The notes beneath the pieces were generated by a model. The model was not told the origin of the DNA. It saw nothing but the letters and a program-made list of their open reading frames with translations, and made no database searches. Positions 3,837-64,000 of a DNA stretch of 64,000 nucleotides are shown here, piece by piece. This DNA is from Candidatus Wallbacteria bacterium. Lineage in GTDB: Bacteria > Muiribacteriota > UBA9980. The stretch's first letter is position 1; each line of letters begins with the position of its first letter. Location of the stretch: positions 66,539 to 130,538 of the forward strand of contig JASDSY010000032.1 in the NCBI GenBank assembly GCA_041441465.1, in the 5' to 3' direction. Made by a program: the position numbers and the translations under genes.

Positions 3837-3867
3837 ATTAAATATTTATTGTCTTTTTCAATTTCAA

Positions 3868-3958
3868 CGGAGAGAGAGGGATTTGGACCCTCGATACAAC
3901 TTTAAGGTCGTATACACGCTTAGCAGGCGTGCGCCTTCGACCACTCGGCCATCTCTCC
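3868..3958 (-). tRNA. tRNA-Ser (anticodon GCT), class II with long variable arm
   Basis: Reverse complement begins GGAGAGATGGCCGAGTGGTCGAAGGCGCACGCCTGCTAAGCGTG. Anticodon stem CACGC/GCGTG, loop CTGCTAA, long variable arm. Acceptor is GGAGAGA/TCTCTCC. Confidence 0.8.
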
Positions 3959-3991
3959 AATAAGGCGCCATAGAAACCTATAAAAATAAAA

Positions 3992-4074
3992 CGGAGGAGG
4001 AGGGATTCGAACTCTCATATCCGCAAAGGACGGCAGATTTCAAGTCTGCTGCCATACCATTAGGCGACTCCTCC
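3992..4074 (-). tRNA. tRNA-Ser (anticodon TGA), class II
   Basis: Reverse complement begins GGAGGAGTCGCCTAATGGTATGGCAGCAGACTTGAAATCTGCCG. Anticodon stem GCAGA/TCTGC, loop CTTGAAA. Long variable arm, T-loop TTCGAAT, acceptor GGAGGAG/CTCCTCC. The T-stem has one A-C mismatch. Confidence 0.7.
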
Positions 4075-44330: not shown

Positions 44331-44801
44331 ATGTTTCAAAAAGAATCGAAAATTAATAAGAAAACTGAAAATGTGGACGCAATAGTGCACAGCCGGGTTC
44401 CGAAATATACAGTTAAAGATATTTCAGAGATGCTTGGCATGTCGAAACATACTATCCGTTATTATGACAATGAAAATCTGCTTCCCTATGTTTCAAGAAG
44501 CGAAAGCAACATAAGATTATTTTCGGAATATGACATACAATGGCTGAAAACCGTTAACTGCCTGAGATATTCAGGGTTGACTATCGCGCAGATAAAAAAT
44601 TACATTCAAATGTGTCTTCAGGGCGATGAGACTATATCGGAACGCGCTCAGCTTATTTTTCAGCAGGAAAAAATACTCGAGGAAAAAGCGAAGGAAATTA
44701 ACGAACAACTCGAAGTAATAAGGTTTAAAAAAGCTTATTACGAAAAATTAATTATTGAAAAAGGCGTGGACATCTGGAATCCGTTAAACGAAAAAAATTG
44801 A
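44331..44801 (+). CDS. MerR family transcriptional regulator
   Basis: 156 aa. HTH 'YTVKDISEMLGMSKHTIRYYDNENLLP' (MerR signature) and a C-terminal coiled coil. Confidence 0.75.
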   Translation: MFQKESKINKKTENVDAIVHSRVPKYTVKDISEMLGMSKHTIRYYDNENLLPYVSRSESNIRLFSEYDIQWLKTVNCLRYSGLTIAQIKNYIQMCLQGDETISERAQLIFQQEKILEEKAKEINEQLEVIRFKKAYYEKLIIEKGVDIWNPLNEKN

Positions 44802-47989: not shown

Positions 47990-48557
47990 TGGAAAATAAA
48001 AAAAGTTTATTTTTAAATGTTGTGACATCAGATATTAAAGAATCTTCAGTTTTTCTTGTGTTCGCAGGGGAAAAACTGCTGGTGAAAAAAATAAAACCGG
48101 CTATGGCTTTGTTAAATTTTCAGATATTTCAGCATATATAAAAGATATAAAACCCGTAACCACACATTTTATGGGAATTGACAATGAAATTAAGCATTAT
48201 TTTTTTCAGGCGCAAGATTCATTTAAAATTGAAAAAAACGGATTTGAATTTTACGATTTAAGAAGTTTGATGGTTCTTCTGGATCAATCTCAATTCATTT
48301 TTGTTTGCAAATCATCGCAGATATTACACTGGGACAAAACTACAAAATTTTGCGGCGAATGCGGATCAGAAACCAAACATTCACCGTCTGAACGCGCTCA
48401 GCTTATTTTCCAGCAGGAAAAAATACTCGAGGAAAAAGCTAAGGAAATTAATGAACAACTCGAGGTAATAAGGGTTAAAAAAGTTTATTATGAAAATTTA
48501 ATCATTGAAAAAGGCGTGGATATGTGGAATCCTTTTATTGAAAAAGACAGTGATTAA
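47990..48557 (+). pseudogene. Chimeric pseudogene: degenerate partial copy of nudC fused to a copy of the 3' end of the MerR-family gene
   Basis: 47990-48400 translates, with frame breaks and stops, to NudC-like peptide. Examples: 'ESSVFLVFAGEKLLVKK' against NudC 'ESSLFMVFADEKLLVKK', and 'LDQSQFIFVCKSSQILHWDKTTKFCGECGSETKHSPSERA' against NudC 'LDQSQFTMAGKAAQVLYWDKTTKFCGECGRKTKHSESERA'. 48400-48557 is ~90% identical at the DNA level to 44640-44801 (MerR C-terminus, 'SERAQLIFQQEKILEEKAKEINEQLEVIR'). The junction falls at the shared 'SERA' codons. Confidence 0.65.
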
Positions 48558-48673: not shown

Positions 48674-48726
48674 GAAAAAACATTAAGCTCAAGACTGTTG
48701 TGAAATTTAAAGCCGTCTTGAGCTTA
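48674..48726 (-). terminator. Rho-independent terminator downstream of the precursor-peptide gene
   Basis: 12-bp stem taagctcaagac/gtcttgagctta with a 19-nt loop, followed on the minus strand by a T-run (plus-strand aaaaaa at 48675-48680). Confidence 0.7.
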
Positions 48727-48779
48727 ATTTATATATAGTTGTTTTATTTACTATAAAAATGTTTATAAAAAAATAAAGC

Positions 48780-49178
48780 TTATTTTGGGCCATGATAACT
48801 CTGAGAAGTTATGTTAATTTCTGTACAGTCGGTCGAAGTGAGGGCGCCGGCTATGCTTGTTATAGCGCAGTATATTCCGGCCGATACGACGCTGGCTGCA
48901 ATAAAAGACCCTTTATTTGTGCCTCCTGAAACATTAGACAGGTCTTTCTCGTCAAGCTCGCTGTTTGAGTTAATTTTATCAATGAGTTCCTGTCTTGCTT
49001 CGGTAAGGTCATCTTTTGAAAAATTAAAACCGTTCGTGCTGCCGAATTTAATTAAATTTTCCATTACCAGATTTTGATTTTCTTTTTGAAGTTTCTGGAC
49101 CATATTCATATAGTTTTGATGCATTTCTGAGTTTTTTGAGATTGCAGCGAACATTTTTTTTACGGTTTCCTTACTCAT
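48780..49178 (-). CDS. RiPP precursor peptide: Nif11-like leader with double-glycine cleavage motif, lanthipeptide-type core (LanA)
   Basis: 132 aa. The ~86-aa leader (MSKETVKKMFAAISKNSEMH...ELDEKDLSNVSGG) is Nif11/N11P-like and ends in GG. The 45-aa core TNKGSFIAASVVSAGIYCAITSIAGALTSTDCTEINITSQSYHGPK has 7 Ser, 7 Thr and 2 Cys. RBS ggaggg. Immediately downstream of lanM in the same operon. Confidence 0.7.
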   Translation of the reverse strand: MSKETVKKMFAAISKNSEMHQNYMNMVQKLQKENQNLVMENLIKFGSTNGFNFSKDDLTEARQELIDKINSNSELDEKDLSNVSGGTNKGSFIAASVVSAGIYCAITSIAGALTSTDCTEINITSQSYHGPK

Positions 49179-49330
49179 TGAAATCCCTCCATAAATATTG
49201 TCAGTTAAAAGCTATATAATATATTTCTTGAATTAATGTTTTAAAAATGTAAAAATATTTTAACATAAATTGACTATTATTGTCAAAATTAATTTTTAAT
49301 GTAAAAATGGATTTCAGAAAACGATTAAAA

Positions 49331-52300
49331 TTATTGAGGTGACAGTATTGTCGATATTTTATCTCCGGCGGCGATTCGTAAGGCCGTATAACCGATTCCG
49401 GCCAACCCGGTAAATAATCCCGGGATAAATATTGCCTTGGAATCATCGACCGTCAGGGTATATCTGCCGTTTTTTTCTGCCCGGTTGATTATGAAAGAAA
49501 ATTGCTTTCTGGCATCTTTTAGTAACTCATGGCGTTTTAATGTAATTGAAGCTTCTATTAAAAATTCGATCTGGCTTGAATAACCGCAACATAAATGATC
49601 GCGAAAATTTGGTATTGCTTTAAAATTTTTTGAAAATTCAATTGAATTTTCAATATCTATTAAAAATTGCGGAGAGTTTATAATGCGAGATAATTCCAGC
49701 CGTGAAAAACCTATTCCCGGAGCTCCTGAACACCATCCGTGCATAAATGGAACGGTTTCAGAGTTACTTTTATCTTTATTTCTGAAATCAGGCCAGTTTT
49801 GGTAATCGGGCGAGTAGCATGCAGTTTCATAATTACATGCTTCGAGAGCCGCTTCTTTAAAAAGATCATTGTCTGTTATATCATAAACTTTAGCAAGCGC
49901 TAAAGCGTAGCCTGATGCGCCGTGAGCGAACCCGGTAAGCGGCTTATAGGCGTGGGCCGATGGCCAGAGCAACCATTTTTCATATTTGACGTGTTTGGCG
50001 AGTAAATATTTGGCGCACTCTTCCGCAAATTTTAAAAGTTTTTTGTCGCCTGATAATTTATAGAAAGCCACGGCTGTAATTGCGCCTCCTGCAGCTCCTC
50101 CCATTATGTCAAGTTCACTATCGTGAGATAAAATACAGGTTTTAAATAATGCCAGCCCTTTTTTGGCTGATTTTAAAAGTCGGCTTTCGTCAAGATATTT
50201 TCCTGAATTATAAAGAGCCCACAAAATTCCGGATATTCCTGTTGTATAACCGAGCGAATACTTCGCCGCCGAGTTTATCTTGCTTGAATTTTTGATGAAT
50301 TCTAGAAATTCATCGAAACATTTTACTGCAAGTTCGTGATAAGCGCTGTCGCCTGTAATTTTTTCGTATGCCGCTAAAAATAACCCTATTCCAGTGCTTC
50401 CGTCATATAATGTAATATCGGACGGGCCGATATAATTATAATGTCTGACAGGATCGTTTTTTAATGTAAGCCATTGCGGTCTGCCGTTTTTTAATATAAC
50501 ACGGTCAGAGATTGTTTGGGCGATATCACGGGCGGTGCTGATAATTTTTTTATTATTCAATTCCGGCATTTTGGAGGCATTTTCTGTGTTTATAAATTTT
50601 AATTCATTGTTTTGAAAATCGAAGTCAGGAAAACGCGCAGCAAGTGATGCTTCTATTAAGCTCAATTGATATTCCATGTCGCCGCTGCTTAATTTTTCGA
50701 TTTGTATTTTCATTCTTTCAATTGCGCTTTTGATATAATAATCTTCGATTACAATACCGCTCTCGTCATTGACTGAATGGCTGCCGCATGAAAAAATAAA
50801 AAGCGGAATATTCATAAAAAGCACCGAACGTCTTTCGGCGTCATAAATTTTCCAGAGTTTTTCAATGTCTGCCCCGGTTTCTGCATTTAAAAAAGGTTTG
50901 GCCAATCCTTCTGCTTCAATTGAATAAGCGGCGCCGTTTCTCATTAAGCCTGGCGATCTAAGGCGTTCAATCATATCTCCATATATTTGCGATTGTCTTG
51001 GAAGTGAACGCATGTATGCGTCTGAATTTTCTGAAAGTGAACTGATTTCTTTAATAAAACCTTCACGGTCGGATAATATGGTTTTATAATAATCGCTGAA
51101 TCCATTTAATATATCATTTTTGTATTCCATAACGTTCATGAAACTGCCGTTAAAATGAGGCACGTTCGGTGATAGACCTGTGTTTCGGTTTATATATGCT
51201 CGGCGCATTTTATCCGTATTTATGTCAATCCATTCCCTGGTTGAGTAAGGAACGTTATCGTCAGGCGTAAGCGCGCCGTAATCTCTTGAAACGTCTTTTG
51301 AAATTTGAGTCCATAACGGAAGTATGCAAGTTCGGAGGACAGAATCGCCGTCAAGATTAAGATAATTATTTTTGTCAGTGTCGCTAATGTTTTTGTGGTT
51401 GAATGGTTTTACAAGCGGATTTAAAAGGGTTTCAAGATCTATAAATACAGGATCGCAGCCGTCAGCAATAAGGTTTTCCTGATGGAAATCAATTCCGCCG
51501 AGTGTGTAGATAATGGCAAGCAACGCCCCGGCTTTATAATAAAATAAACTGGCGTCTTCGATTTTTTGTAGCGATGAGTTAGTTATCTCTTCGACCCAGG
51601 TATAGCCGTCACCTTCTAAGTGTGTTGGAAGTTTGAATTTAATATCAGGCATTTTTTTTTCGAAGAGTTTGATAATATTCGCCCATAAAGTGTCGGCGTT
51701 TCCGTATCGCGGTTTGTAAAAAAGATTCAGGCCGTTTTGAAATTCAAATTTAATAACGCTTTTTCCATTATTATGGTGATCGGACAGGTCGGCTTTGACT
51801 CTCGAAATGTAACCCGGCTTTTTCGGGACGTTAAATTTTAAGCTTATTTTAGACACATCTTTATTGAGATTTTTGATGACATCGGCAAAATAAAGCGCCT
51901 GTTGAGTGCAAACCGTTGAAATAAGCCGTGCTGCTACCGGATAATTTTTTAAAAAATCGATCCATTCGCCAGAAAGCATTCTTTGACAAAATTCCTGATA
52001 TCGTAGTGATGAATTTTCTCTTAAAGAAGTAAAATTATGGTTATTAAGGAAAATAAAATTATTAAATCTCAGATGATCAAAAGAGGATGTGAGGCAGAGC
52101 GCAAAGTTTTTATTTAAAATATTTAGAATGTATCTTAGCCAGTCTTTTAGCGCGCATTCGCTTAAAAATTGATTGTAATTCGGACAGGTTTTTATGAAAA
52201 TATCATGACATGCCAGAAGCCACGGCGACCATATTTCTTGATAAGGCTCTGGTTTTTCAACTGAAAATGTTTTTATTGGCAGTTTTTTCATGATTTCTTC

Positions 52301-52618
52301 TGTGGAGGCCGGCAGTTTTTCCAGAACGGTGTCGATCAAAACAAGCCATTCCGGAAGTGGGACTGCATTGTTCCAGCTGACTTTACCTAAAAATGGAATG
52401 CATTCAGCCGGGTTTTTACCTAAAAGTTGCATTCTGCGGTTAAATCCTTCGTAATTTCCTCCATGAGAAGTGAGAACGCGCCATCTGGTTAATAGTTCAT
52501 TTTCCTGATTGCGCATATTACAGTCAGCTTCCGCTAAGACTGCCGCACCGGCAATACGTTCGTCGATAAATGCCGCGCCGGAGGCGATATGCTTTTTTTC
52601 TTCATTTGTTAATTTCAT
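49331..52618 (-). CDS. lanM: Class II lanthipeptide synthetase (LanM), ProcM-like
   Basis: 1095 aa. The N-terminal dehydratase region is DUF4135-like. The C-terminal LanC-like cyclase carries 'GFAHGASGYALALA', 'HGWCSGAPGIGFS' and 'DHLCCGYSSQ'. The CCG triad in place of the usual CHG is as I recall for ProcM. Size is typical of LanM. Confidence 0.8.
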   Translation of the reverse strand: MKLTNEEKKHIASGAAFIDERIAGAAVLAEADCNMRNQENELLTRWRVLTSHGGNYEGFNRRMQLLGKNPAECIPFLGKVSWNNAVPLPEWLVLIDTVLEKLPASTEEIMKKLPIKTFSVEKPEPYQEIWSPWLLACHDIFIKTCPNYNQFLSECALKDWLRYILNILNKNFALCLTSSFDHLRFNNFIFLNNHNFTSLRENSSLRYQEFCQRMLSGEWIDFLKNYPVAARLISTVCTQQALYFADVIKNLNKDVSKISLKFNVPKKPGYISRVKADLSDHHNNGKSVIKFEFQNGLNLFYKPRYGNADTLWANIIKLFEKKMPDIKFKLPTHLEGDGYTWVEEITNSSLQKIEDASLFYYKAGALLAIIYTLGGIDFHQENLIADGCDPVFIDLETLLNPLVKPFNHKNISDTDKNNYLNLDGDSVLRTCILPLWTQISKDVSRDYGALTPDDNVPYSTREWIDINTDKMRRAYINRNTGLSPNVPHFNGSFMNVMEYKNDILNGFSDYYKTILSDREGFIKEISSLSENSDAYMRSLPRQSQIYGDMIERLRSPGLMRNGAAYSIEAEGLAKPFLNAETGADIEKLWKIYDAERRSVLFMNIPLFIFSCGSHSVNDESGIVIEDYYIKSAIERMKIQIEKLSSGDMEYQLSLIEASLAARFPDFDFQNNELKFINTENASKMPELNNKKIISTARDIAQTISDRVILKNGRPQWLTLKNDPVRHYNYIGPSDITLYDGSTGIGLFLAAYEKITGDSAYHELAVKCFDEFLEFIKNSSKINSAAKYSLGYTTGISGILWALYNSGKYLDESRLLKSAKKGLALFKTCILSHDSELDIMGGAAGGAITAVAFYKLSGDKKLLKFAEECAKYLLAKHVKYEKWLLWPSAHAYKPLTGFAHGASGYALALAKVYDITDNDLFKEAALEACNYETACYSPDYQNWPDFRNKDKSNSETVPFMHGWCSGAPGIGFSRLELSRIINSPQFLIDIENSIEFSKNFKAIPNFRDHLCCGYSSQIEFLIEASITLKRHELLKDARKQFSFIINRAEKNGRYTLTVDDSKAIFIPGLFTGLAGIGYTALRIAAGDKISTILSPQ

Positions 52619-52661
52619 TGGATCTCTTTGATTAAAAATTTTTTGTCTAATAAAACAAGCT

Positions 52662-53567
52662 TTAGAATAAAATTTTTTTTCTTATTACCTGATTGTATTG
52701 TTCAATTGAGTACTTTGAAAATTTTTTTTTGACCATTTTAAGTCTGGCATGGTTATCATATCTTACCATGAAAATTGCGTAAGGGTATTTTTGGCTGAGC
52801 TCGGTAAGTAAATGACCTCTTATAGAACGCATCTGAAGTGCTATGCCGAGCGCGGCACCCTGATATTGAGGCATTATAAAAATTGAATTGTAACAGATTG
52901 TATTTTCGTCGTAATAGCTGCATATTGCCCAGCCGATAATGTTTTTTCCTGCTTTCAAGCCGAGGCTTATTTCAGGGACTATTACCTTTTCATTGATAAA
53001 AGGTGAAATCCTTTGATCAAAAAAGCCTTGGCCTTCTAATTCGCCCATGAGTTGTTTCTTTTCGGCTGACGGTATATCGGTCCAGCTGAATGTTTCGAAT
53101 CCGTCAGGAAGTTTAGTATATTCCGTTATTGGCATGTCGGCTATGCTTTTATCGCATTTGCAGTAATATAATTCGGGCTCGGCGGGAAGGAATCCGCATT
53201 TATCCAGAAGGTTATTTATTATCGTAACGAAAGGCCGGTTATCAAAATAAAAAGTGCTAATGGTCTTTATTTTGCTTTCACGGCATTGCTGCTCGAAAAA
53301 ATCAATCATTTTTAAAGCAAGGCCGCGGCGGCGGAATTCTTTTTCGATAAATATGGACATTATATCGGCCTTGCCCGGCGTGTTTAATTGGTTAAGGCCG
53401 AGAAGCAAGCCGGCCGGCCGGCCGGCGCGATATAATCCTATAGGGAAAAGCCTGTCATTTATGACATCCATCCAGGCCAGAAACGGCTTATATTGGCCGT
53501 AAGTCATATTATTAAAATGTTGTGTTTCGGATGATCTTAAAAGCTTTATTTCATAATTGCTATGCAT
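52662..53567 (-). CDS. Tandem GNAT-fold acyltransferase-like protein (FemAB/GNAT superfamily), first gene of the lanM operon
   Basis: 301 aa with two GNAT-like halves: 'IFIEKEFRRRGLALKMIDFF' and 'IFIMPQYQGAALGIALQM'. It is 44 bp upstream of lanM on the same strand. Confidence 0.45.
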   Translation of the reverse strand: MHSNYEIKLLRSSETQHFNNMTYGQYKPFLAWMDVINDRLFPIGLYRAGRPAGLLLGLNQLNTPGKADIMSIFIEKEFRRRGLALKMIDFFEQQCRESKIKTISTFYFDNRPFVTIINNLLDKCGFLPAEPELYYCKCDKSIADMPITEYTKLPDGFETFSWTDIPSAEKKQLMGELEGQGFFDQRISPFINEKVIVPEISLGLKAGKNIIGWAICSYYDENTICYNSIFIMPQYQGAALGIALQMRSIRGHLLTELSQKYPYAIFMVRYDNHARLKMVKKKFSKYSIEQYNQVIRKKILF

Positions 53568-53945
53568 GAAGCGGCACCTTTAATGATTTATTGGCGTAAT
53601 TTGATTAATACAGTAAAAAGTTTTGCGCGGATAGTATCAATGATTATAGATATTATGCTTATTAAAAAAATAAACCGGCATTATAAAAAAAAAATGTGAA
53701 TTTATTTTTCAGGGCAATTTAATTTTTTTGAAACCATAATATAATCAAGTAAAGTGGGGTTCAAACAAAAATAGTATATCATAAAAATCAGTTTCTGAAA
53801 ATCAATATTTTTTAGTTAAAAATAGATTGTAAAAAATTGATTTTTATGATAGTTTACATCAAGATTTTGTTTTGATGCTGCAATAATTAAAATTGATTTT
53901 TATTAAAAAAATTATTTTATAAAATAAATCGCATGTGGTGATAAT

Positions 53946-56675
53946 TTGAAAAAAAAATCGAATACCCGGGGGCATATATGGCTGTTGTATATTAATCGGC
54001 TTGGCACAGGCAATCTTTATCAAAGCACCGAACCGCTCGGGCTTAAGGCACTGGCCGCTTTTGTAGAGGAAAAAGGTTATTCGGCTTATGTTTATTCAGG
54101 TTCCGTTCATGAAGCTGTAAATATGCTTGGAATTACATCTTATAAATGTGATGATGAAACAGCCGGGAAAACTTCAGGCGTGTCGGAAAATATTCCGGAT
54201 GCGGTCGGGCTTTATTGTGATTTTGAAACGCTTTCGGCAGTTGAGAGTTTTTCGCGTTTCATAAAAGAAAACACAGGTATAAAGGTTTTTGTCGGCGGCC
54301 CTCAGGCGGTCGCGCTTGACGAGGGTTTTCTGAAAGCGTCGAAATGTGACGCGGTGGTGCGCGGCGAAGGCGAATATCCGCTTTACGAGCTTCTCGAGTT
54401 TTTTATCAAAGGCATCGGGAAAATCGAAGATATCGCCGGTGTGAGTTATGTTGATTTTTCAGGCAAATATGTCCAAATACCTCAGCGGCCGCCGATCGCT
54501 CAACTCGATCTTCTGCCGGTTAGAAAAAGCGGAATTGACGGTACTGCGCGGAAAATGGCCGGCAATTATTCAATTCTTACAGGGCGCGGCTGCCCTTTCT
54601 CATGCGCCTTCTGCTACGAGGGAAGCGTTTCGCGCGGCGTAAGACTGCGCGGCGTCGAGAACGCTCTTAGCGAAATAAAACAGGCGCTCGAATTTAACCC
54701 TAACATAAAATATATATGGTTTGCGGACGATACTTTTACGCTTAATCCAGCACGCATGGAAGCATTCAGCAAAGGGCTTACGGAATTAAGAAAAAAATAT
54801 GATTTCGTATGGTTTTGCGAATGCCATCCGAGTACGATGATAAAATGGCCTGAAACTTTGCCCATGATGATCGACGCGGGTCTTGTCAGGATGCAAATAG
54901 GCATGGAATCGGGCGACCCTGGAATAATTAAATTATATAAAAAACGCGCTTCTCTTGACGATATCGCCGCTGTCGTTGAGCTGGCTTATAAAAGCGGCCT
55001 GCCGCAGCTTACCGGAAACATGATAATCGGCGGAGCGGCTGAAAACAAAAACACTTTCAAACATACTCTGGCGTTCGCCAAAAAACTTATCGATATAGGC
55101 CCCGGCATGACCGATATTACTTCGACTTTTTTCATTCCATTACCTAAAACCGCTATAACGGAATCGCCTTCGGAATTCGGTATAAAAATTCTCGATCCTG
55201 ATTCATATACTTCAATAGGCGATATGGCTGTCATCGAAACTAAAAGCCTGTCGCGTGAGCGAATTATTACAATGCGGCGCGAATTCACAAGGCAGATTAT
55301 TCTTAAAATGAACTATGTTTATAAAAAGGGACGCGTGCCGTTTCAAAGGATAGTCAATGAGTTTGCCATAAACGGCAATTACTGCCTTGAAAGCAATTGG
55401 TATAAAACCGTTTATTCGCAGGATAAATTCGCTGGCGGTTATTATAAGAAAATGGCCGCAGGTGTTTTTTTTGATAAGAGCCGGATTTCGGACGCGGAAC
55501 TTATGAATCGCTGTCCTGCGGTTTCCGTTCGCCATCTCGAAATGATGACGTTAGACGACGGAATTCCGAAAATCGACGGATATGTCCTTTCGCCGCTCGA
55601 ATACAGCCTTATTTCAAAATGCAGCGGGAATTTTTCGCTTTCGTCGATATTTGAAGAAATCTTTGTTTTTTTTGAACGTAATTATCGCTCGCGAAATGAA
55701 TTTTATCGCACTGCCCTGAAGATAGTGAAAAATTTTGAAAAAAAACTGTGGATCGGCTATTTAAAAAATCAGCCGGATTGTTTGAACTATTGTTCAGAGC
55801 CCGTGGCGTTAGAATTAAATTTATACGGAATTAATAACGGCGAATTAACTCCTTCTGATGTTACTCCTGATTGCGGCCCAAAAATTATCCCGGCGATACA
55901 AAGTATCATAAAAATGAATAATTATTCAGAATTTGACGAATTGCGCCGCACCGTAGAAAAAAAATTAAAAAGCGGCTCTAAAATAGTGACTGGAATAATA
56001 TCTGCGGATTGTTCTAAAACTTCCATTGACGAAATTCAAAAAATAACCGAAATGGCGGTATCGCTTGTCGCTAAATATCCCGGAATTTTTGAGGCATTTT
56101 ATGATGATAAGCAGTTTTACGGTACCGCTTTTGAAATGACCGCAAAATATGAAAGTTACGCTGCCGCCTGGCAGGCTGCTAAGTCAAAAGTTTTAGCCGG
56201 AATGGAGCGCGCCGCCGATAATAAAAAAATAGATTTCAAAACCATACTGGCTCATTTTGAATTACGTGAGTTTAGCGGAGTTAGTTCGGTTTATTATGAC
56301 AAAATATTTTTCGCGCGGCCTTTGCTATATAATTATTTTACGATAATGTCACGCGGAGCTGCTATAAAAACGGCGTTTTTAAATAAAGATGCCGGGCATA
56401 CGGAATCTTCGCTTCGCCCGCAGCGAACTATGGCGATATGGCTGGCGGCTGATTTTTCAGGCGGGTACCCCGTCATCGGCCGTGATGTGCTTTCGCCCCT
56501 GGAGTATGAATTATTGCTTTATTGCACGGGTAAATTGACTCTTGAAAAAATATATGGAATAATGAATGAAAAATTTTCTAAATTTTTTGACGGGTTTAAT
56601 GAGTTAAAACAAACTATAAATAGAGTTCTTTTAGATTTCGAGGAAAAATATTGGATATTTTATTCTCGCATATAG
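53946..56675 (+). CDS. B12-binding radical SAM enzyme (class B rSAM, likely RiPP-tailoring) with PqqD-like RRE motif and a duplicated C-terminal RRE module
   Basis: 909 aa, TTG start. N-terminal Rossmann-like B12-binding region (GLYCDFE...VFVGGPQAV...VVRGEGE). rSAM cluster 'GRGCPFSCAFCYEG' (CxxxCxxC). PqqD-like motif 'IDGYVLSPLEYSLISKCSGNFSL' at aa ~545. Residues ~600-909 repeat the post-core region of the paralogs and end in a second 'YPVIGRDVLSPLEYELLLYCTGKLTL' motif. Confidence 0.7.
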   Translation: MKKKSNTRGHIWLLYINRLGTGNLYQSTEPLGLKALAAFVEEKGYSAYVYSGSVHEAVNMLGITSYKCDDETAGKTSGVSENIPDAVGLYCDFETLSAVESFSRFIKENTGIKVFVGGPQAVALDEGFLKASKCDAVVRGEGEYPLYELLEFFIKGIGKIEDIAGVSYVDFSGKYVQIPQRPPIAQLDLLPVRKSGIDGTARKMAGNYSILTGRGCPFSCAFCYEGSVSRGVRLRGVENALSEIKQALEFNPNIKYIWFADDTFTLNPARMEAFSKGLTELRKKYDFVWFCECHPSTMIKWPETLPMMIDAGLVRMQIGMESGDPGIIKLYKKRASLDDIAAVVELAYKSGLPQLTGNMIIGGAAENKNTFKHTLAFAKKLIDIGPGMTDITSTFFIPLPKTAITESPSEFGIKILDPDSYTSIGDMAVIETKSLSRERIITMRREFTRQIILKMNYVYKKGRVPFQRIVNEFAINGNYCLESNWYKTVYSQDKFAGGYYKKMAAGVFFDKSRISDAELMNRCPAVSVRHLEMMTLDDGIPKIDGYVLSPLEYSLISKCSGNFSLSSIFEEIFVFFERNYRSRNEFYRTALKIVKNFEKKLWIGYLKNQPDCLNYCSEPVALELNLYGINNGELTPSDVTPDCGPKIIPAIQSIIKMNNYSEFDELRRTVEKKLKSGSKIVTGIISADCSKTSIDEIQKITEMAVSLVAKYPGIFEAFYDDKQFYGTAFEMTAKYESYAAAWQAAKSKVLAGMERAADNKKIDFKTILAHFELREFSGVSSVYYDKIFFARPLLYNYFTIMSRGAAIKTAFLNKDAGHTESSLRPQRTMAIWLAADFSGGYPVIGRDVLSPLEYELLLYCTGKLTLEKIYGIMNEKFSKFFDGFNELKQTINRVLLDFEEKYWIFYSRI

Positions 56676-56686
56676 GGTTAGCGTGA

Positions 56687-58486
56687 TTGATTATGAATGA
56701 TAAAGTGAACGATTATTCAGAAAAAAATATGGCCGATATATTGCTTGTCAATATTCATCGTGACGGCTGGGGCTTTTTGAACGGCGGCATGAATATAGGC
56801 CTTAATTTTCTGTCGGTTTTTTTGAAGGAGCATGGATATGACGCTGTAATACGTACCGGCACGGCAAACGAGGCCGACGATTTTATTTACGGCGACCCGG
56901 ATAATTGCAGTTTTAAGAGTGTCGGTTTTTATTGTGATTATGAAAATGTGACTCTTGTGCGTGAGCTGTCGGCGCTAGTTCGTGAGAAATATGAAGTTCC
57001 CGTGTTCATAGGCGGGCCGCAGGCGCATTCACTCGGCGCGGAGTTTATCGAAGCTTCACGCTGCGCAGCTGTAGTTCGCGGCGACGGCGAGTACACTCTG
57101 CTTGAACTTCTTGATTCTATGTTCCGCGGCGGTAAAAAACTAAGTGAAATCGCCGGAATTTCTTATATCGATAAATGCGAAGGTTTTGTAAAAACGCCCG
57201 ACCGCGAACTTATCAGCGATCTCGATAAACTGCCTCATCCTGATTTTCGTCTTGAAAAAAAACATGAATATTGGAACAGCTTTCCGGTAATGACCGGAAG
57301 AGGATGCCCTTATCAATGCGCTTTTTGCCATGAAGGCGCGGGGCTTAAAAAAGTCCGATTCAGGAGCGTAGAAAGTGTGCTTTCTGAAATAAGGACCCAT
57401 TTTAAACGCCATCCGCAATGTAAGTATTTATTTTTTATCGACGACACATTTACTCTTAATCAGAAACGCGTCGAAAATTTATGCGACGGGCTCGATGAAC
57501 TCAGGCGTGATATCGATTTCGTGTGGTTTTGCGAAGGCCATGTGCAGACCCTTGCGCGCGCGCCTGAAATGCTTAACAGGATGGCGGCTTCGGGTCTTGC
57601 AAAGCTTTTTATAGGAATAGAATCCGGCTCTGATAAGGTTCTTTCGTTATATCGGAAACAGACGTGCCGCGAAATGATAATAAAAGTCGTCGAGGAATCT
57701 GTTAAGGCTAATATTCCGCAAATTTCCGGAAATATAATTCTAGGCGGACCAATCGAAAGTCCTGAAACGATTGCCGAAAGCCTTTCGCTTATAAATATTC
57801 TTCTTGACGCAGCACCCGGCCGGTTCGATACTGCCGGTTTTTTCTTTATACCTTATCCGGGTACGGCTATAACGCGTGAACCAGAAAAATTCGGAATGAA
57901 AACGCTCTGTTATCTTGAAAAACATGCTCTCGAAGATATTCCGCTCGCCGAAACTGAAAATATGAATTGGGAAGAACTTATAAAGGCGAGGTTCGAGTTC
58001 AATAAAGCGGTACAGAATCGGATGCGCCGGATATACACTGACGGCCTTGTTCCGCATGAAACTATGCTTCAAAGTTATAAACTGCTTATTAAATACGGTG
58101 TTTATTCCCGCTGGATAGCGCATATTTATCCTGAAAATTCCATGAAAAATAATTATTATTCGCTCCTCGCCAACTCGGCGCTTAAAAGGTCAGATGAAAT
58201 AATCGCCTGTGAATTAAGCTTATGGCACCCTCAGAGAATGCTTGAAATCTGGAGCGGAGTTTCATTCTCCGAAGGGTATCCGGTTATCGGCAAAGACGTA
58301 TTATCGCCGCTTCAGTATGAATTATTGCTTTTATGCTCGGGAAAAAACAGGCTGTCCGATGTTATGGATAGCGCGTTTCAGAAGTTCGGCGCTAGGTTTG
58401 CGAACCGCGATGAATTTGAAAATGAGGCCGGTGCCGTAATGAAAGACTTTGAAAATAAAGGCTGGATGGCGTATTCGCGTTTTTAA
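56687..58486 (+). CDS. B12-binding radical SAM enzyme with C-terminal PqqD-like RRE
   Basis: 599 aa. B12-domain pattern (GFYCDYENV...VFIGGPQAH...VVRGDGE), rSAM 'GRGCPYQCAFCHEG', and C-terminal 'YPVIGKDVLSPLQYELLLLCSGKNRLSDV'. Starts 12 bp after the upstream stop. Confidence 0.75.
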   Translation: MIMNDKVNDYSEKNMADILLVNIHRDGWGFLNGGMNIGLNFLSVFLKEHGYDAVIRTGTANEADDFIYGDPDNCSFKSVGFYCDYENVTLVRELSALVREKYEVPVFIGGPQAHSLGAEFIEASRCAAVVRGDGEYTLLELLDSMFRGGKKLSEIAGISYIDKCEGFVKTPDRELISDLDKLPHPDFRLEKKHEYWNSFPVMTGRGCPYQCAFCHEGAGLKKVRFRSVESVLSEIRTHFKRHPQCKYLFFIDDTFTLNQKRVENLCDGLDELRRDIDFVWFCEGHVQTLARAPEMLNRMAASGLAKLFIGIESGSDKVLSLYRKQTCREMIIKVVEESVKANIPQISGNIILGGPIESPETIAESLSLINILLDAAPGRFDTAGFFFIPYPGTAITREPEKFGMKTLCYLEKHALEDIPLAETENMNWEELIKARFEFNKAVQNRMRRIYTDGLVPHETMLQSYKLLIKYGVYSRWIAHIYPENSMKNNYYSLLANSALKRSDEIIACELSLWHPQRMLEIWSGVSFSEGYPVIGKDVLSPLQYELLLLCSGKNRLSDVMDSAFQKFGARFANRDEFENEAGAVMKDFENKGWMAYSRF

Positions 58487-58570
58487 GGCTTGAATTATAA
58501 TTATGAATAATGAATTATCGAATGATAGTTCACTTTTAAGATTTAAAGGATATTTGGGGGATAATATATT

Positions 58571-60331
58571 ATGGAAGAACTTTCGCGTGAACGGCCGTAT
58601 ATATTGCTTATGTATGTCCAGAGGGCCGTTTATGGAAGAAAATTCGAATTTCTTGGCAACCTTGGAATTTCGTCACTTGCCGCTTACCTTGAAAATAAAG
58701 GTTACAAAGCCAGGGCATTTACCGGCATCACTACCGACGCGGCGGATATTTTCGCCGGTGAGTTTCAAAAATCACCTATAACCGCGGCTGGCTTTTATTG
58801 TGACTACGATAATCAAACGGCTGTTGAGGAAATGAGCCGGCACTTGAAAATGAAATATGGCGTAAAAGTAATTATAGGCGGTCCGCATGCTATAAACCTG
58901 GGTGAGGAATTTATAAGGCGTTCCGGGTGTGATTTCATAGTACGAGGTGACGGAGAGGCCGCGCTTTTTGAGTTAATGGAATATATCGCTGACGGCCGCG
59001 GCGGGCTTGAGAAAATAAGCGGTATTTTATATATTGACGAAAATGGCAGCTTTATAACTAATCCTCCGCGCGATCTTTCGGAATCTGTCGATGAATATCC
59101 TTTCCCGAGTAATTCATTTGAGCTCGGCGGGAGAAAAAGATATAATCTATCGGTAATGGCGGCGCGCGGCTGCCCGTTCCGCTGCGCGTTTTGTTTCGAA
59201 GGCGGCAATACTAAAAAGTTAAGGCCCAGAAGCGTTAAAAAAGTTATCGAGGAAATAAGGACCAGACTTATTGAAAATCCTGAGGCGAATTACTTATGGT
59301 TTGTAGATGATACATTTACGCTTAATTATGATCGCACAGCCGAATTTTGCGAAAGGCTTTCAGAGCTTAGAAAAGAACGCGATTTTGTCTGGTTTTGCGA
59401 AGGTCATGCCTCGCTTCTTGCAAAAAATCCTGGATTGATCAAATTGATGGTAAATTCCGGCATGGTGCGTATGCAGATTGGTATGGAATCAGGATGTCCT
59501 GAATCTCTTAAAAGTTATCATAAACAGGCTACTATTCAGGATATAGAAGAAGTCGCCAGAATATGCGCGGAAGCGGGATTGCCTCAACTTGCCGGCAACT
59601 TCATAATAGGCGGCTCGCATGAAACTCAGGATACTCTTGAACGGACAGCCTCTTTTGTAGAGAGACTCCATGAGATAGCTCCAGGATTAATAGATATATC
59701 GACTACTTTTATAATGCCGCTTCCTAATACCGCTATTTCAAAATCCCCGAGGGATTTTGGCGTAAAAATACTTGATCATGGCTCATATACCACGACCGAG
59801 GATTTTCCTGTCAATGAAACTGATTCGCTTTCAAGGTTCGAAATAAGCGGCGCAGCCAAAAAATTCCTTGTGCGCTGCGTCGACCGGATGGAAAAGATTT
59901 TTAAAGACGGTTTGGTGCCGCGTGAAAAGATAAAAAGACATTTTGAGCTTTCGTTAAAGTACAGTCTTTCAAGCAGCTGGTACAGGTTTATCTATTCGAA
60001 AGACCAGCTTTTAAAACAATATTATGAAATCATGATTTTACGAAATGGTTCTCATTTCGACGAGATCTCGTTTGATAAGATTAACTATTACTATCCGCGC
60101 AGAACTTTTAATGATACCATGTATGACGGATATTTTAATTCTGGCAATTATTTTAATAGAGTCAGCCTTACGGCGATTGAATTTGATATAAGTTTATTAT
60201 GCGACGGCCGTAACCGTGTCGACTCGATTCTTTCCGCCGTATGCCGTAAATACCGCTGCGAAACACCCGAAACTGTTTTGCGCTTGTTGATAAGTATGGA
60301 AAATAAGCGTCTTATTGTTTTTATACCTTAA
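58571..60331 (+). CDS. B12-binding radical SAM enzyme (paralog) with divergent C-terminal RRE-like region
   Basis: 586 aa. 'GFYCDYDNQ...VIIGGPHAI...IVRGDGE', rSAM 'ARGCPFRCAFCFEG', C-terminal 'LTAIEFDISLLCDGRNRVDSI'. Confidence 0.7.
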   Translation: MEELSRERPYILLMYVQRAVYGRKFEFLGNLGISSLAAYLENKGYKARAFTGITTDAADIFAGEFQKSPITAAGFYCDYDNQTAVEEMSRHLKMKYGVKVIIGGPHAINLGEEFIRRSGCDFIVRGDGEAALFELMEYIADGRGGLEKISGILYIDENGSFITNPPRDLSESVDEYPFPSNSFELGGRKRYNLSVMAARGCPFRCAFCFEGGNTKKLRPRSVKKVIEEIRTRLIENPEANYLWFVDDTFTLNYDRTAEFCERLSELRKERDFVWFCEGHASLLAKNPGLIKLMVNSGMVRMQIGMESGCPESLKSYHKQATIQDIEEVARICAEAGLPQLAGNFIIGGSHETQDTLERTASFVERLHEIAPGLIDISTTFIMPLPNTAISKSPRDFGVKILDHGSYTTTEDFPVNETDSLSRFEISGAAKKFLVRCVDRMEKIFKDGLVPREKIKRHFELSLKYSLSSSWYRFIYSKDQLLKQYYEIMILRNGSHFDEISFDKINYYYPRRTFNDTMYDGYFNSGNYFNRVSLTAIEFDISLLCDGRNRVDSILSAVCRKYRCETPETVLRLLISMENKRLIVFIP

Positions 60332-60380
60332 AAAACACACACTTCCATTCAATTACTTGAGGTAATCAGTGGAAGTGTGG
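60331..60380 (-). terminator. Rho-independent terminator after precursor B, between convergent genes
   Basis: 10-bp stem cacacttcca/tggaagtgtg with an inner attac/gtaat stem. A plus-strand A-run at 60331-60335 supplies the T-run for the minus-strand transcript. Confidence 0.6.
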
Positions 60381-60410
60381 TTTACTGGTCATTTTAGGGT
60401 ACCTTTCTGA

Positions 60411-60689
60411 TTAGTGTTTGGCTGTTTGTATCGATACAAATGCGTAGTCGATACCTACGAACGTAAGTCCGCCGGCTACTTTTTCGAGCTCTTTCTCTGA
60501 AAGTTCGCCTTTCTTGGTTTCTGAAAGCTCTTCAAGGGCTTTTCTGAATTCAGCGATTGTAACTTCATAGCCGTGTTTTTTAGCTTTTTCTAAAAAATCA
60601 GCTTCGCTTTTTGATTGTTTAAGCTCATCAGAGAGTTTTGGATCGCTCTGAATTTTAGCCAGAAGGGCTTTTGCGTTATTTAATGTCAT
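60411..60689 (-). CDS. RiPP precursor peptide: canonical Nif11-type leader, GG motif, 18-aa Cys-free core
   Basis: 92 aa. Leader 'MTLNNAKALLAKIQSDPKLSDELKQSKSEADFLEKAKKHGYEVTIAEFRKALEEL...SEKELEKVAGG' is typical Nif11/N11P. Core 'LTFVGIDYAFVSIQTAKH'. RBS ggagg 7 bp upstream. Confidence 0.7.
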   Translation of the reverse strand: MTLNNAKALLAKIQSDPKLSDELKQSKSEADFLEKAKKHGYEVTIAEFRKALEELSETKKGELSEKELEKVAGGLTFVGIDYAFVSIQTAKH

Positions 60690-60785
60690 GTTGTCACCTC
60701 CTCATAATTTTGTAAGGCTGTCCAAAAACATAATTTTTGAATCAGTCTTTTTTATTGTGTTTTATGTTAGTTCTAAAATATTTTA

Positions 60786-62555
60786 TTATAACTTGCAAAA
60801 TACAACCCAATATCTTGCGTCAAAATTTTTAAGTAATTGCTTTATTTCCTCTAAAAATTCATTTTCGCTTTCGAATCTGCTGCCGAACTTTTCATGAAGA
60901 CTTGTAATTACTTCGTTTAATGTCATTTTTCCGCTGCAATGCAGTAAAAGTTCGAATTCAAGCGGTGAAAGAACATAATCGTCTATTTGCGGATATCCTT
61001 TTCTTATATCGACGATTCTCCAGATTTCGACCGTACGCTGCGGGCGCCAACTCGTTAATTCGCCGGCCGGCACATCCGTTAACCGTCTTGCCGAACCCTG
61101 GCATATAAGTCTGAAATATTCATTTAAAAGCTGGTTTCTTTTAAATACGTTAAGGTACCACATGCTTGTGACGCCGTATTCCGCGGCAATTTTATATTGC
61201 GAAAGTATGGTTTCATAGGGCACTTTATTGTCTTTTAGAATTTTAAGCATTGTTTTCGATATATGCCAGCTGACTTTAACGCGGTTATTGATGACGTCTT
61301 CCGCGCATAATCCATTGACGGAAACTGGAGGGTAATCGTCAAATGATTTTAATTCGTCGTGTTCCGATATTTTTAAACCGAATGCCGCAGGATTGTTTGA
61401 AATGGCGGTTCCGGGGTAAGGCCTTAAAAAACCTGTGGCTATGTCTATAATACCCGGCGCTATATTCAAAAGTTTTTCTGCGAAAGAAATAGTTTCATCT
61501 ATAACTTCTCCGCATTCAAACGGTCCGCCGACTATAAAATTAGTCGCGATTTGCGGCACTTTACATCTAACCGCTTCGCGTACTACGAATTCTATTTCAT
61601 CGAGTGTCGTATTTTTTCCGTAAGCTTCAAGTACTTTCGCACAGCCTGTTTCAACGCCTATCTGCAGCCTTAAAAGTCCGGATTCGGCCATTGATTTAAG
61701 CATTTCAGGCTGCCTCGCCAGCGTACGGACATGACCTTCGCAATACCAGCCTATGTTTCTGTCTTTTCTTAAAATGTTTATTGCCGAGCAAAACTCGCTT
61801 ACCCTTTGAGAATTTAGCGTGAAAGTGTCGTCCATTACGGTTATATATTTTAATCCGTCATTGTTTTCAAGATTGTTTTTTATCTCTTGCGTGACATTAG
61901 CGATGCTTCTGAGTCTTACTTTTTTCTTATGGTTGCTCTGATAGCAGAATGCGCAGGCGAACGGACAGCCGCGCCCGGTAAATATGGTGCCGCCGTAACG
62001 CCTGTCTTTTCGAAGAGAACGATGATACGCCGGAAACGGCAGCGCATCTAATTCTGAAACAGGATCACGCGCATCGTTTATTATGAATTCATTGCTTTTA
62101 TTAAGCCAGCACAAACCCTTAATTTGCTCTGGCACTCCTTTTGAATGGACGATGAAATCAAGCAATTCAGGCAGCGTTTCCTCCGCTTCGCCCCGTACTA
62201 TATAATCACATCGTGACTCGCTCAAAAATTTCCCGTCGAGCGCCGCGGCTTGCGGCCCGCCGATAATGACTGTTACTTCATATTTTTCCTTCACGTAAAG
62301 GCATAGTTCCGTAACTGCTGATTTATTTTTATAATCGCATGAAAAACCGACTGCCGCGATTTTATATTCTTTTACATATTTTTCTAAAATATCAGGCACA
62401 TCGCTGGTCAAACCGTGAAAAACCCATGGTTCATAGCCTTTATTTTCGAGGGCGGCCGCCAGGTAAAAAAGCCCGAGACAATCAACCGCGCCATCGTTCT
62501 GGAGCGCATCCGGCCTCTTTACGTTCATAAGCAGTACGCCGTTTTTTTTGTTCAC
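60786..62555 (-). CDS. B12-binding radical SAM enzyme with C-terminal PqqD-like RRE
   Basis: 589 aa. 'GFSCDYKNK...VIIGGPQAA...IVRGEAE', rSAM 'GRGCPFACAFCYQS', C-terminal 'YPQIDDYVLSPLEFELLLHCSGKMTLNEV'. Confidence 0.75.
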   Translation of the reverse strand: MNKKNGVLLMNVKRPDALQNDGAVDCLGLFYLAAALENKGYEPWVFHGLTSDVPDILEKYVKEYKIAAVGFSCDYKNKSAVTELCLYVKEKYEVTVIIGGPQAAALDGKFLSESRCDYIVRGEAEETLPELLDFIVHSKGVPEQIKGLCWLNKSNEFIINDARDPVSELDALPFPAYHRSLRKDRRYGGTIFTGRGCPFACAFCYQSNHKKKVRLRSIANVTQEIKNNLENNDGLKYITVMDDTFTLNSQRVSEFCSAINILRKDRNIGWYCEGHVRTLARQPEMLKSMAESGLLRLQIGVETGCAKVLEAYGKNTTLDEIEFVVREAVRCKVPQIATNFIVGGPFECGEVIDETISFAEKLLNIAPGIIDIATGFLRPYPGTAISNNPAAFGLKISEHDELKSFDDYPPVSVNGLCAEDVINNRVKVSWHISKTMLKILKDNKVPYETILSQYKIAAEYGVTSMWYLNVFKRNQLLNEYFRLICQGSARRLTDVPAGELTSWRPQRTVEIWRIVDIRKGYPQIDDYVLSPLEFELLLHCSGKMTLNEVITSLHEKFGSRFESENEFLEEIKQLLKNFDARYWVVFCKL

Positions 62556-62747
62556 GATAGGTTTCTCCTTAAATTCCTCGAAAAACGCAATTGGTAAGTA
62601 AATTTATTCAAACCAATTAGAAAATAATATCTTTTACAACGCAGCGGCTGAATAAATAAAATAGTGTAAATTTTTTATATTAGAATAATAAATTATAGTT
62701 AATGCGTGAATAATATATCGATTTAAGTATATTCGCGACGGCTAATG

Positions 62748-64000
62748 TTAAAACGGCGCGTATGCAAGCCAGTATTTCTGTTCGAATTTTTTTAATATAT
62801 TCATAGCCTCTTCATTGAATTCCGATTCACTGTCAAAAAGCCGCCCGAATTTTTCACGGACTTTGTCGAGCACCTGTTTTAGTTTTAATTTTCCTGTCGA
62901 ATATAGAAGCAGCTCAAACTCTAAAGGCGAAAGCACGTCCTTGCCGATTTTCGGATAGCCTTCGCTGAAATCGACATCGTGCCACATTTCCATTATCCTC
63001 TGCGGACGCCAGCCGAGAATTTCGTTCTCGTGAATATCGAGCGATCTTTTGACAGCATTTCTCGCTATTAAAGTGTAATAGCCGCGGACAAACGGAATTG
63101 TGTTATATACCGCCATGTGCCATACTGATTGCGCGCCGTAGCCGTAATCGCGGAAGCAGTCGACGATTCTTTCATGCGGTACCTTGCCGTCTTTGAATAA
63201 TTTAATCATTGTGTCAAGTATATGCTGCATCAGTTCGTTTTGCGCTGCCGCGATTTCCTCGCGGTTCATGAAATCAGTTTGAGTGACTGGAAAGTCCGAA
63301 AATACGGTAGAACCTTGCGGATCGACGATTTTTAATCCGAATTTTTCAGGGCAGTGTGTTATTTCAGTCGATGGATACGGCATAAGCGGACTGATGCCGA
63401 GTATTATCACTCCCGGCGCGAGATTCAGAAGTTTTTCGGCGAATTTTTTGTTTTCTTCGAGAATTTCACGGTTTTCAAACGGCCCGCCCGTTATGAAAAA
63501 ACCGATCATCTGATGAACGCCTTCGCGGGCAGACATTTTAACCGCTTCTTCAATTTCGGCGAGCGTAGTTCTTTTACCGTAAGCGTCAAGCACCTTTTGC
63601 GAACCTGATTCGATGCCGACCTGCATTTTTATCATGCCGGCTTTTGTCATTTCCGCGAGCAGGCCCGGATATTTTATCAGCTGCTTTACGTGGCCTTCAC
63701 AAAACCAGACGAAATTTCTTTTTTTTCTTATTTCGGTCAGCCCTGCGCATAGTTCCATTACTCTTTCCCTGGACATTATCAGCGTGTCATCGGCAAAAAC
63801 TATATAATTTAAAGATGGTTCGTTATCGAGAACCATCTTTATATGCTCTAAAACTTTATCAACGCTTCTCAGCCGGACTTTGCGTTTCAGCGACCCTTCA
63901 TGACAGAATGCGCATGAAAACGGGCAACCGCGTCCGGATTGTATGTAAACGCTTTTTAATTCGGGTTTATTTACCCATTTATGAAATGCAGGAAGCGGCA
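62748..64000 (-). CDS. B12-binding radical SAM enzyme with C-terminal RRE, N-terminus beyond the window end
   Basis: The listed ORF (62748-63836) starts at an internal Met. The same frame stays open to the window edge and encodes '...GRGCPFSCAFCHEGSLKRKVRLRSVDKVLEHIK-MVLDNEPS...'. C-terminal 'YPKIGKDVLSPLEFELLLYSTGKLKLKQV'. Confidence 0.7.
   Translation of the reverse strand, partial: PLPAFHKWVNKPELKSVYIQSGRGCPFSCAFCHEGSLKRKVRLRSVDKVLEHIKMVLDNEPSLNYIVFADDTLIMSRERVMELCAGLTEIRKKRNFVWFCEGHVKQLIKYPGLLAEMTKAGMIKMQVGIESGSQKVLDAYGKRTTLAEIEEAVKMSAREGVHQMIGFFITGGPFENREILEENKKFAEKLLNLAPGVIILGISPLMPYPSTEITHCPEKFGLKIVDPQGSTVFSDFPVTQTDFMNREEIAAAQNELMQHILDTMIKLFKDGKVPHERIVDCFRDYGYGAQSVWHMAVYNTIPFVRGYYTLIARNAVKRSLDIHENEILGWRPQRIMEMWHDVDFSEGYPKIGKDVLSPLEFELLLYSTGKLKLKQVLDKVREKFGRLFDSESEFNEEAMNILKKFEQKYWLAYAPF

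Follow-up and report, generated by a model that had tools for sequence, protein, structure and literature searches.

This work describes two gene sets for peptides that are made on ribosomes and modified after translation (RiPPs); the sets lie side by side near the end of a 64,000-nucleotide stretch of DNA (hereafter the window; contig JASDSY010000032.1), which belongs to a metagenome-assembled genome (MAG) of Candidatus Wallbacteria. The sets diverge from a 378-bp intergenic region (53568-53945 in the map of open reading frames [ORFs]). Cassette A runs leftward on the reverse strand and comprises a tandem-GNAT acyltransferase, a class II lanthipeptide synthetase (LanM), and a precursor peptide (preA). 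Cassette B starts rightward with three cobalamin (B12)-binding radical S-adenosylmethionine (rSAM) enzymes, rSAM1-2-3, and contains further such enzymes as well as a precursor of its own (preB). These are probably two independent RiPP cassettes placed back to back: cassette A of the selidamide type, and cassette B a multi-B12-rSAM system for which C-methylation is the likeliest chemistry. A preliminary description of this DNA had joined all of these genes into a single combined pathway, a reading that comparison with related genomes does not bear out.

The independence of the two cassettes is seen most directly in their distribution (loci outside the window are designated by L numbers). No homologue of LanM, the GNAT, or preA was found in 46 rSAM loci searched up to 10 kb around, and no B12-rSAM was found within 8 to 10 kb of GNAT-LanM in six other loci; the cassettes never co-occur in 41 + 6 related loci. 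Two related MAGs hold both cassettes on different contigs. In GCA_964551445.1, cassette B lies on contig 24 (L002) and GNAT-LanM on contig 21 (L050), where the latter carries its own OEP, PBP, HlyD, PCAT, and ABC genes. In GCA_964421195.1, cassette B (L011) and GNAT-LanM (L053) are likewise on separate contigs, and the flanks of the two cassettes are unrelated in both MAGs. The apparent hybrid is therefore most likely a juxtaposition of two cassettes.

The genes of cassette B were assigned to families by Pfam and NCBIfam/TIGRFAM profile searches at curated cutoffs. Three enzymes are encoded on the forward strand: rSAM1 (53946-56675; 909 residues), a complete B12-binding rSAM enzyme; rSAM2 (56687-58486; 599 residues), also B12-binding and with a C-terminal domain resembling a RiPP recognition element (RRE); and rSAM3 (58571-60331; 586 residues), in which this RRE-like domain is divergent. 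The reverse strand encodes preB (60411-60689; 92 residues, with core DNA at 60414-60467), rSAM4 (60786-62555; 589 residues, with the RRE-like domain encoded at 60792-61073), and rSAM5 (62748-64000+), of which the C-terminal 416 residues fall inside the window. The four full-length enzymes score 33.5 to 52.2 bits against the B12-binding model PF02310 (cutoff, 32.1) and 72 to 79 bits against the rSAM model PF04055, and each has one CxxxCxxC motif; the values for rSAM1 are 42.4 and 74.2 bits, with CPFSCAFC at residue 216. Pairwise identity among the window paralogues is 34 to 43%.

The fifth gene is intact. Its frame is open up to the window end, CPFSCAFC included, and the sequence beyond could be read from a Logan contig (L047) that is 99.4% identical to window positions 54524-64000 and extends a further 12 kb. 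This contig holds the full-length rSAM5 (586 residues), followed by a sixth rSAM gene (603 residues; MEZ7893062.1) whose product gives only a weak B12-binding match. Thus, the preliminary description was correct in listing five paralogous B12-rSAMs in a cluster that leaves the window edge, and the ORF map confirmed the positions of all the genes it listed. Beyond the sixth rSAM gene, L047 encodes two proteins of the PF00144 serine hydrolase family, a sensor kinase, and a secreted C39_2-like protein. PF00144 genes that are 59% identical stand beside cassette B in L047 (6407-9736) and, on the opposite side, in L012 (18626-19807); this may be coincidental, or the genes may serve as accessory peptidase or for immunity.

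A 94-residue C-terminal domain in these enzymes bears the motif VLSPLE(Y/F)ELLL.CSGK, which had been taken earlier for a PqqD-like RRE. This assignment holds in part. The predicted fold, a winged helix with a beta-sheet, is like that of solved RREs and supports the assignment, but the Pfam PqqD model (PF05402) matched just one of six copies of the domain, at an E value of 0.11. Searching PDB sequences with a profile of the domain gave nothing relevant, the only matches being spurious ones to haemagglutinin and P-Rex. In rSAM1, the RRE-like domain occupies residues ∼514 to 607 and is followed by a second C-terminal module, helical and RRE-like, at residues ∼740 to 909; this tail is 35% identical to residues 428 to 589 of rSAM4/5. 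The rSAM1 orthogroup includes the first module of 1,196-residue double enzymes from Acetobacterium-type clusters, which are complete, with two CxxxCxxC motifs (e.g., L003, 6396-9986). Judged by sequence, the extra module of rSAM1 looks like a remnant or variant of that fusion.

None of the curated NCBIfam models was matched by the cassette B enzymes at its cutoff; the best scores, ∼95 to 132 bits, were to HpnJ and ApyD, for which 578 and 750 bits are set. Against the ApyD model (NF050148), the enzymes ranged from 38.9 to 132.4 bits. PDB sequence searches gave remote class B enzymes only. Structural comparison reached further: an AlphaFold2 (AF2) model of rSAM4 (pLDDT, 92.4) was compared by Foldseek, which ranked MgmA, AprD4, TsrM, OxsB, CysS, and TokK as matches, with E values from 1e-16 to 7e-22 and identities of 14 to 18%. 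MgmA, TsrM, OxsB, CysS, and TokK depend on cobalamin, and AprD4 acts as a radical SAM diol dehydratase. The best of these matches was MgmA (E value, 7e-22; 17% identity).

The putative substrate, preB, passes both Nif11 leader models (PF07862, 48.9 bits; TIGR03798, 55.1 bits), as had been suggested for it beforehand. Its leader ends in VAGG, and the 18-residue core that follows, LTFVGIDYAFVSIQTAKH, lacks Cys. Nif11 precursors and further B12-rSAMs are also the neighbors of the proteins most closely homologous to rSAM4, which come from Acetobacterium woodii, Heliomicrobium undosum, and one MAG. Scanning species-representative genomes with the precursor alignment yielded 41 cassette B loci, each with a preB-like precursor and 4 to 7 rSAM modules. 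The hosts are Wallbacteria, UBP16, Vulcanimicrobiota, Synergistaceae, other Synergistia, many Acetobacterium species, other Eubacteriaceae, Thermoclostridium, Lachnospiraceae, Formimonas, Sporomusa, Anoxynatronum, and Desulfobacterales. Across the related loci, 50 precursor ORFs were collected, of which 45 have the motif DYAF and yield 23 distinct cores; the core consensus, L-[ST]-[FLIM]-V-G-[VI]-D-Y-A-F-[TV]-x-x-[QEK]-T-…, is near-invariant.

A neighbor-joining tree of the rSAM catalytic regions resolves five orthogroups, all present in every cluster type. The window holds one enzyme per orthogroup, and the sixth gene beyond it is a further paralogue of the rSAM1 type. Seven enzymes, encoded in the same gene order, are found in the nearest relatives (L007, L012, L002, and L006), and Acetobacterium-type loci have five rSAM modules, two of them fused in the double enzyme. 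In the latter loci, genes for a periplasmic binding protein, HlyD, a C39-ABC exporter, and a second ABC protein come after the enzymes; the HlyD, C39-ABC, and second ABC genes are consistent with Gly-Gly processing. Comparison of Val or Ile at core positions 6 and 13 with the presence of an extra rSAM2' paralogue gave no clean pattern. Some Acetobacterium-type clusters carry two or three precursor genes in tandem (L021, 9586-10776; L024, 10001-10778; L028, 5991-6678), among them genes for variant cores such as ITLVGIDYPFVMTPIVP.

Cassette B shares features with several known systems and departs from each of them. Like the loci for polytheonamide-type proteusins (PoyB/PoyC) and clavusporins (PMC10849626), it places B12-rSAMs beside a long-leader precursor with a hydrophobic, aliphatic-rich core, for which methylation of unactivated carbons would be expected. 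Those systems use one or two iterative enzymes, whereas here 5 to 7 separate paralogues serve an 18-residue core, each enzyme bearing an RRE-like domain at its C terminus; the leader is of the Nif11 rather than the NHLP type, cassette B lacks an epimerase and an N-methyltransferase, and its enzymes fall short of the PoyB/PoyC-type model TIGR03975. The system is not a proteusin: the leaders are Nif11-type, and no epimerase-type rSAM was seen among the profile-searched cassette genes and loci. Bottromycin biosynthesis involves three site-specific class B radical SAM methyltransferases and offers a second parallel, in that several paralogous B12-rSAMs are each thought to act on one position of a short core. 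Cassette B differs in having no follower-peptide or YcaO context, in its fused RRE-like domains and Nif11-leader substrate, and in a twofold enzyme number. The third comparison is with MgmA and Mmp10, which are C-methylases of methyl-coenzyme M reductase, and with ApyD, all of them cobalamin-dependent rSAMs that act on peptide or protein substrates. Here, substrate and gene context differ; MgmA, for all its structural match, shares just 17% identity, and ApyD, though among the best NCBIfam matches, is matched far under its cutoff.

We infer the chemistry of every step, and the allotment of one site to each enzyme, from these comparisons. In the proposed pathway, the six paralogous cobalamin-dependent rSAMs would dock on the Nif11 leader of preB, each through its own RRE-like domain, and each would make one site-specific modification on the hydrophobic core; Gly-Gly cleavage and export of the modified peptide would follow. 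The most likely reaction is C-methylation of unactivated side-chain carbons, since methylation is, to our knowledge, the reaction of every characterized B12-rSAM acting on a RiPP or protein (PoyB/C, the bottromycin methylases, TbtI, ApyD, Mmp10, and MgmA), MgmA is the top structural match, and Val, Ile, Leu, and Thr, residues that are commonly methylated, are abundant in the core.

The same three points argue against a different account of cassette B, which we regard as less likely but to be taken seriously: that the cassette is indeed independent but that some or all of its enzymes are no methyltransferases and instead form C-C or C-heteroatom cross-links (e.g., at Tyr8 or Phe10), close rings, or carry out a rearrangement. 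This account draws on the failure of the curated methyltransferase models and on the presence of the nonmethylases HpnJ, BchE, and AprD4 among the top-scoring NCBIfam models, as well as on AprD4 and OxsB being among the closest folds of the rSAM4 model. Moreover, the invariant D-Y-A-F center of the core is atypical of known poly-C-methylated peptides, and cobalamin-dependent rSAMs are described as chemically diverse (PMC13331322). A bolder proposal, to which we give limited credence, is that cassette B founds a new RiPP family in which the core receives at least five different radical modifications, at least some of them beyond simple C-methylation, and whose product, instead of acting as a strain-specific bacteriocin, would fulfil a physiological role conserved among anaerobes.

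Cassette A, in contrast to cassette B, belongs to an already known kind of lanthipeptide cluster. The gene for preA (48780-49178, reverse strand; core DNA at 48783-48920) encodes a 132-residue lanthipeptide precursor. Residues 1 to 86 form a long, Nif11-like leader that ends in SGG, with the double glycine at 85-86. The 46-residue core, TNKGSFIAASVVSAGIYCAITSIAGALTSTDCTEINITSQSYHGPK, contains 2 Cys and 13 Ser/Thr residues after SGG, and Lys at core position 3 (TNKG) and at the C terminus (Lys46). The leader scores under both Nif11 cutoffs (PF07862, 18.3 versus 23.8 bits; TIGR03798, 26 versus 32.3 bits), yet preA is 31 to 41% identical over >110 residues to four PF07862-carrying precursors in L052, and the Nif11-type leader assigned to it earlier is probable.

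Next to preA, LanM (49331-52618, reverse strand; 1,095 residues) was identified by profile searches with 699.4 bits to TIGR03897 (cutoff, 304), 291 bits to PF13575 (DUF4135), and 201 bits to PF05147 (LANC_like). It has the catalytic motifs DLSDHH and HQEN and, as first noticed from its CCG motif, a three-Cys zinc site of the ProcM type, in which CCG takes the place of CH, made up of GWC963SGA and LC1010C1011G. A bifunctional LanM adjacent to a leader-bearing precursor with a Cys-containing, Ser/Thr-rich core identifies the set as a class II lanthipeptide system. The third gene (52662-53567, reverse strand) encodes a 301-residue GNAT, 100% identical to MEZ7893055.1 of a Candidatus Wallbacteria MAG and a putative Lys side-chain acylase of the lanthipeptide. 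Its N-terminal half passes PF00583 (43.5 bits); alignment of N-half and C-half profiles with hhalign reveals an internal duplication (E value, 6.6e-6). Given this duplication and two P-loop-like motifs (RRRGLA at residue 79 and QYQGAA at residue 234), the protein is a true tandem GNAT, as originally proposed.

The tandem GNATs of ∼300 residues form a large family (1,140 representative clusters at an E value of ≤1e-10 in a full HMMER scan), and in all six other contexts examined (L050 and L052 to L056), LanM follows the GNAT. The LanM of the window is 49% identical to that of L050 and 41% identical to that of L052. In L050, the order is sigma70, a Gly-Gly-leader peptide, GNAT, LanM, OEP, PBP, HlyD, PCAT, and ABC; in L052, it is PCAT, ABC, PBP, GNAT, four Nif11 precursors (131 to 201 residues), and LanM, and the layouts of L053 to L056 resemble these two. 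The export genes lie downstream of LanM in L050 and upstream of the GNAT in L052, L054, and L055; L053 and L056 lack an adjacent PCAT. Cores of the preA family, those of the L052 precursors included, have Lys or Lys-Gly near the N terminus, in the contexts TNKG, MTKG, SSKG, and LHKG, and the L056 core starts with KSEK.

Some of these loci encode Gly-Gly-leader peptides of 76 to 87 residues that are not of the Nif11 type, directly after an ECF sigma factor gene. The core of the peptide in L056 (1971-2201) is KSEKCQGGANCSSCINNKNGKCIFS, and that of the peptide in L050 (9613-9876) is LPPGWTVKYTQDGFPVYENIATGERYDF, which lacks Cys and looks like a WW domain. L057 (1442-7586) encodes P0157, a distant relative of the tandem GNAT, between a non-B12 radical SAM gene (PF04055 plus Fer4_12) and HlyD, PCAT, and ABC genes, and thus holds a RiPP-like cluster with a GNAT that is of another kind.

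The closest published system to cassette A is the npu cluster of Nostoc punctiforme, which comprises no genes other than those for a Nif11 precursor, a GNAT, and a LanM (PMC8784127). NpuM is a ProcM-clade LanM, NpuN is a tandem GNAT that fatty-acylates Lys1, and the cluster belongs to the selidamides (PMC8784127, PMC13060382); NpuA cores begin with KGK. Cassette A has the same three-gene set, in which a tandem GNAT of ∼300 residues and a ProcM-clade LanM accompany a precursor with a probable Nif11 leader, as well as the Gly-Gly leader end and the Lys(-Gly) at or near the core start. It differs in that the preA core has 46 rather than 25 residues, with two Cys only and Lys at position 3; in the divergence of the preA leader, which is Nif11-like but below the model cutoffs; and in its host, an uncultured member of Wallbacteria rather than a cyanobacterium, for which acylation is predicted from the genes. 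In addition, the three-Cys (CCG) zinc site and the probable Nif11-type leader are shared with the prochlorosins. There, a library of many diverse ProcA genes takes the place of the one precursor found here, no GNAT is dedicated to the pathway as in cassette A, and the host is a cyanobacterium. By analogy, the combination of GNAT, ProcM-type LanM, and Nif11-type precursor with a Lys near the core start matches the selidamide/nostolysamide architecture, and cassette A is probably a new member of this known kind.

On the model of these systems, the ProcM-type LanM would phosphorylate Ser/Thr residues of the preA core and eliminate the phosphate, and would close up to two thioether rings onto the two Cys residues. 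The tandem GNAT would then be expected to acylate Lys3 (TNKG) or the C-terminal Lys, with a fatty acyl-CoA as the probable donor, and a C39 exporter (PCAT) encoded elsewhere would cut off the leader after Gly-Gly.

At the left border of cassette A, a direct repeat of 159 nucleotides with 90% identity occurs at 44637-44795 and 48387-48545, and its second copy supplies the 3' portion of an ORF (48171-48557) that is chimeric and lies directly left of preA. This ORF joins an N terminus like the zinc ribbon of NADH pyrophosphatase to a C terminus copied from a MerR-like gene (44331-44801) that lies 3.75 kb upstream. The repeat and the chimeric ORF are probably, from their sequences, the scar of a rearrangement, and this scar, together with export genes that stand near GNAT-LanM in the relatives and are absent from the window, suggests a local rearrangement. 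A gene for a GH64 beta-1,3-glucanase with a CarboxypepD_reg domain is found at 16749-18692, and in L055 (7963-9954) such a gene is directly upstream of the GNAT; the distance of 34 kb to the GNAT of the window suggests insertions or rearrangements between the two.

Several observations weigh against the reading of two independent cassettes, the one selidamide-type and the other methylating. The cassettes are physically adjacent and have the divergent 378-bp region in common, and no exporter belonging to either was found in the window or the 12 kb that follow; shared regulation, shared export, or some cross-talk between them is possible. For cassette A, the window GNAT is only a putative homologue of NpuN itself. 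The GNAT aligns over its full length (E value, 5e-30; 24% identity) with P0212, a possible but unverified NpuN relative, which starts with MYTLNI, the first six residues of NpuN as deduced from a primer; its numbering does not match the published Asp182/His265. For cassette B, the scores against TIGR03975 are 42.6 to 70.7 bits versus a cutoff of 281.85, and methylation is only the prior.

The adjacency also speaks for reading the locus as a single hybrid pathway, in which LanM, the GNAT, and the B12-rSAMs would act jointly on one or both Nif11 precursors to give a radical-modified lanthipeptide. The leaders of both precursors are related to Nif11 and end in Gly-Gly, ProcM-type LanM enzymes are described as promiscuous (PMC10783134), an exporter that neither gene set includes might be shared, and the P0157 locus demonstrates that RiPP clusters with a GNAT and an rSAM exist. 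We nevertheless consider this improbable in view of the zero co-occurrence in related loci and the separate contigs in two MAGs described above. The preB core, moreover, is free of Cys and is conserved in genomes that have no LanM at all; the preA and preB leaders are 32% identical over 38 residues only; and the repeat scar and chimeric ORF at the left border suggest a recent rearrangement. That cassette A is a decaying remnant which has lost its exporter, leaving only cassette B functional, is likewise improbable: the position held by OEP, PBP, HlyD, PCAT, and ABC genes in the relatives is indeed taken here by the chimeric ORF and repeat, but all three ORFs are intact and full length, with DLSDHH, HQEN, and the three-Cys zinc site in place, a strong promoter-like site precedes preA, L053 and L056 likewise lack an adjacent PCAT, and a PCAT may sit elsewhere on the 132,981-bp contig.

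As for control and export regions, the 378-bp intergenic region gave only weak promoter-like matches, and the best site, graded strong, is at 49286-49257, just upstream of preA. The absence of an exporter, which had already been reported for the window, was confirmed by tblastn, which found no C39/ABC exporter or HlyD in the whole window or in the 12 kb covered by L047. No cobalamin riboswitch or other Rfam family was found in the window except three tRNAs, whose genes lie in tandem at 3763-4074 on the reverse strand. Elsewhere in the window, a 1,030-residue ORF (38232-41324) consists of many repeats of ∼90 residues (…TETAVF…SG(I/V)TKTA.F.LK…) and probably encodes a secreted or surface repeat protein. 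A protein with TPR and caspase (Peptidase_C14) domains (18793-20691) and a fusion of a LuxC-like acyl-CoA reductase with an AMP-binding domain (21618-24290) are unrelated to the cassettes.

The novelty of the locus is unevenly divided. The preliminary description had held the combination of genes to be unlike any characterized system; for the GNAT-LanM-Nif11 trio, this does not apply, as it is the published npu/selidamide architecture. The multi-B12-rSAM part does look undescribed, as had been suspected. Subscription-only literature aside, we found no paper describing cassette B or its core motif (VGIDYAF/VGVDYAF), and the sole relevant item was an antiSMASH "bacteriocin" cluster listed for Acetobacterium in a genome paper (PMC6925170). 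Cassette B is a widespread, uncharacterized variant of B12-rSAM-tailored RiPPs, unusual in the number of dedicated paralogues, the fused RRE-like domains, and the invariance of the core across phyla.

Cassette A would take lipidated selidamide-type lanthipeptides into an uncultured phylum, an incremental gain. Cassette B is the valuable half: one short peptide is accompanied by five to seven dedicated cobalamin-dependent rSAMs in 41 species-level genomes from several phyla. B12-rSAMs are difficult to work with, and for few of them is the substrate known. In cassette B, sequence points to the substrate, the putative docking domain, and a series of orthologous enzymes alike, so the chemistry of the five orthogroups could be assigned in one coexpression series. 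The carriers include the cultured acetogen Acetobacterium woodii, which is genetically tractable. Finally, that the core is so extremely conserved may reflect a conserved target or a physiological function of the peptide.

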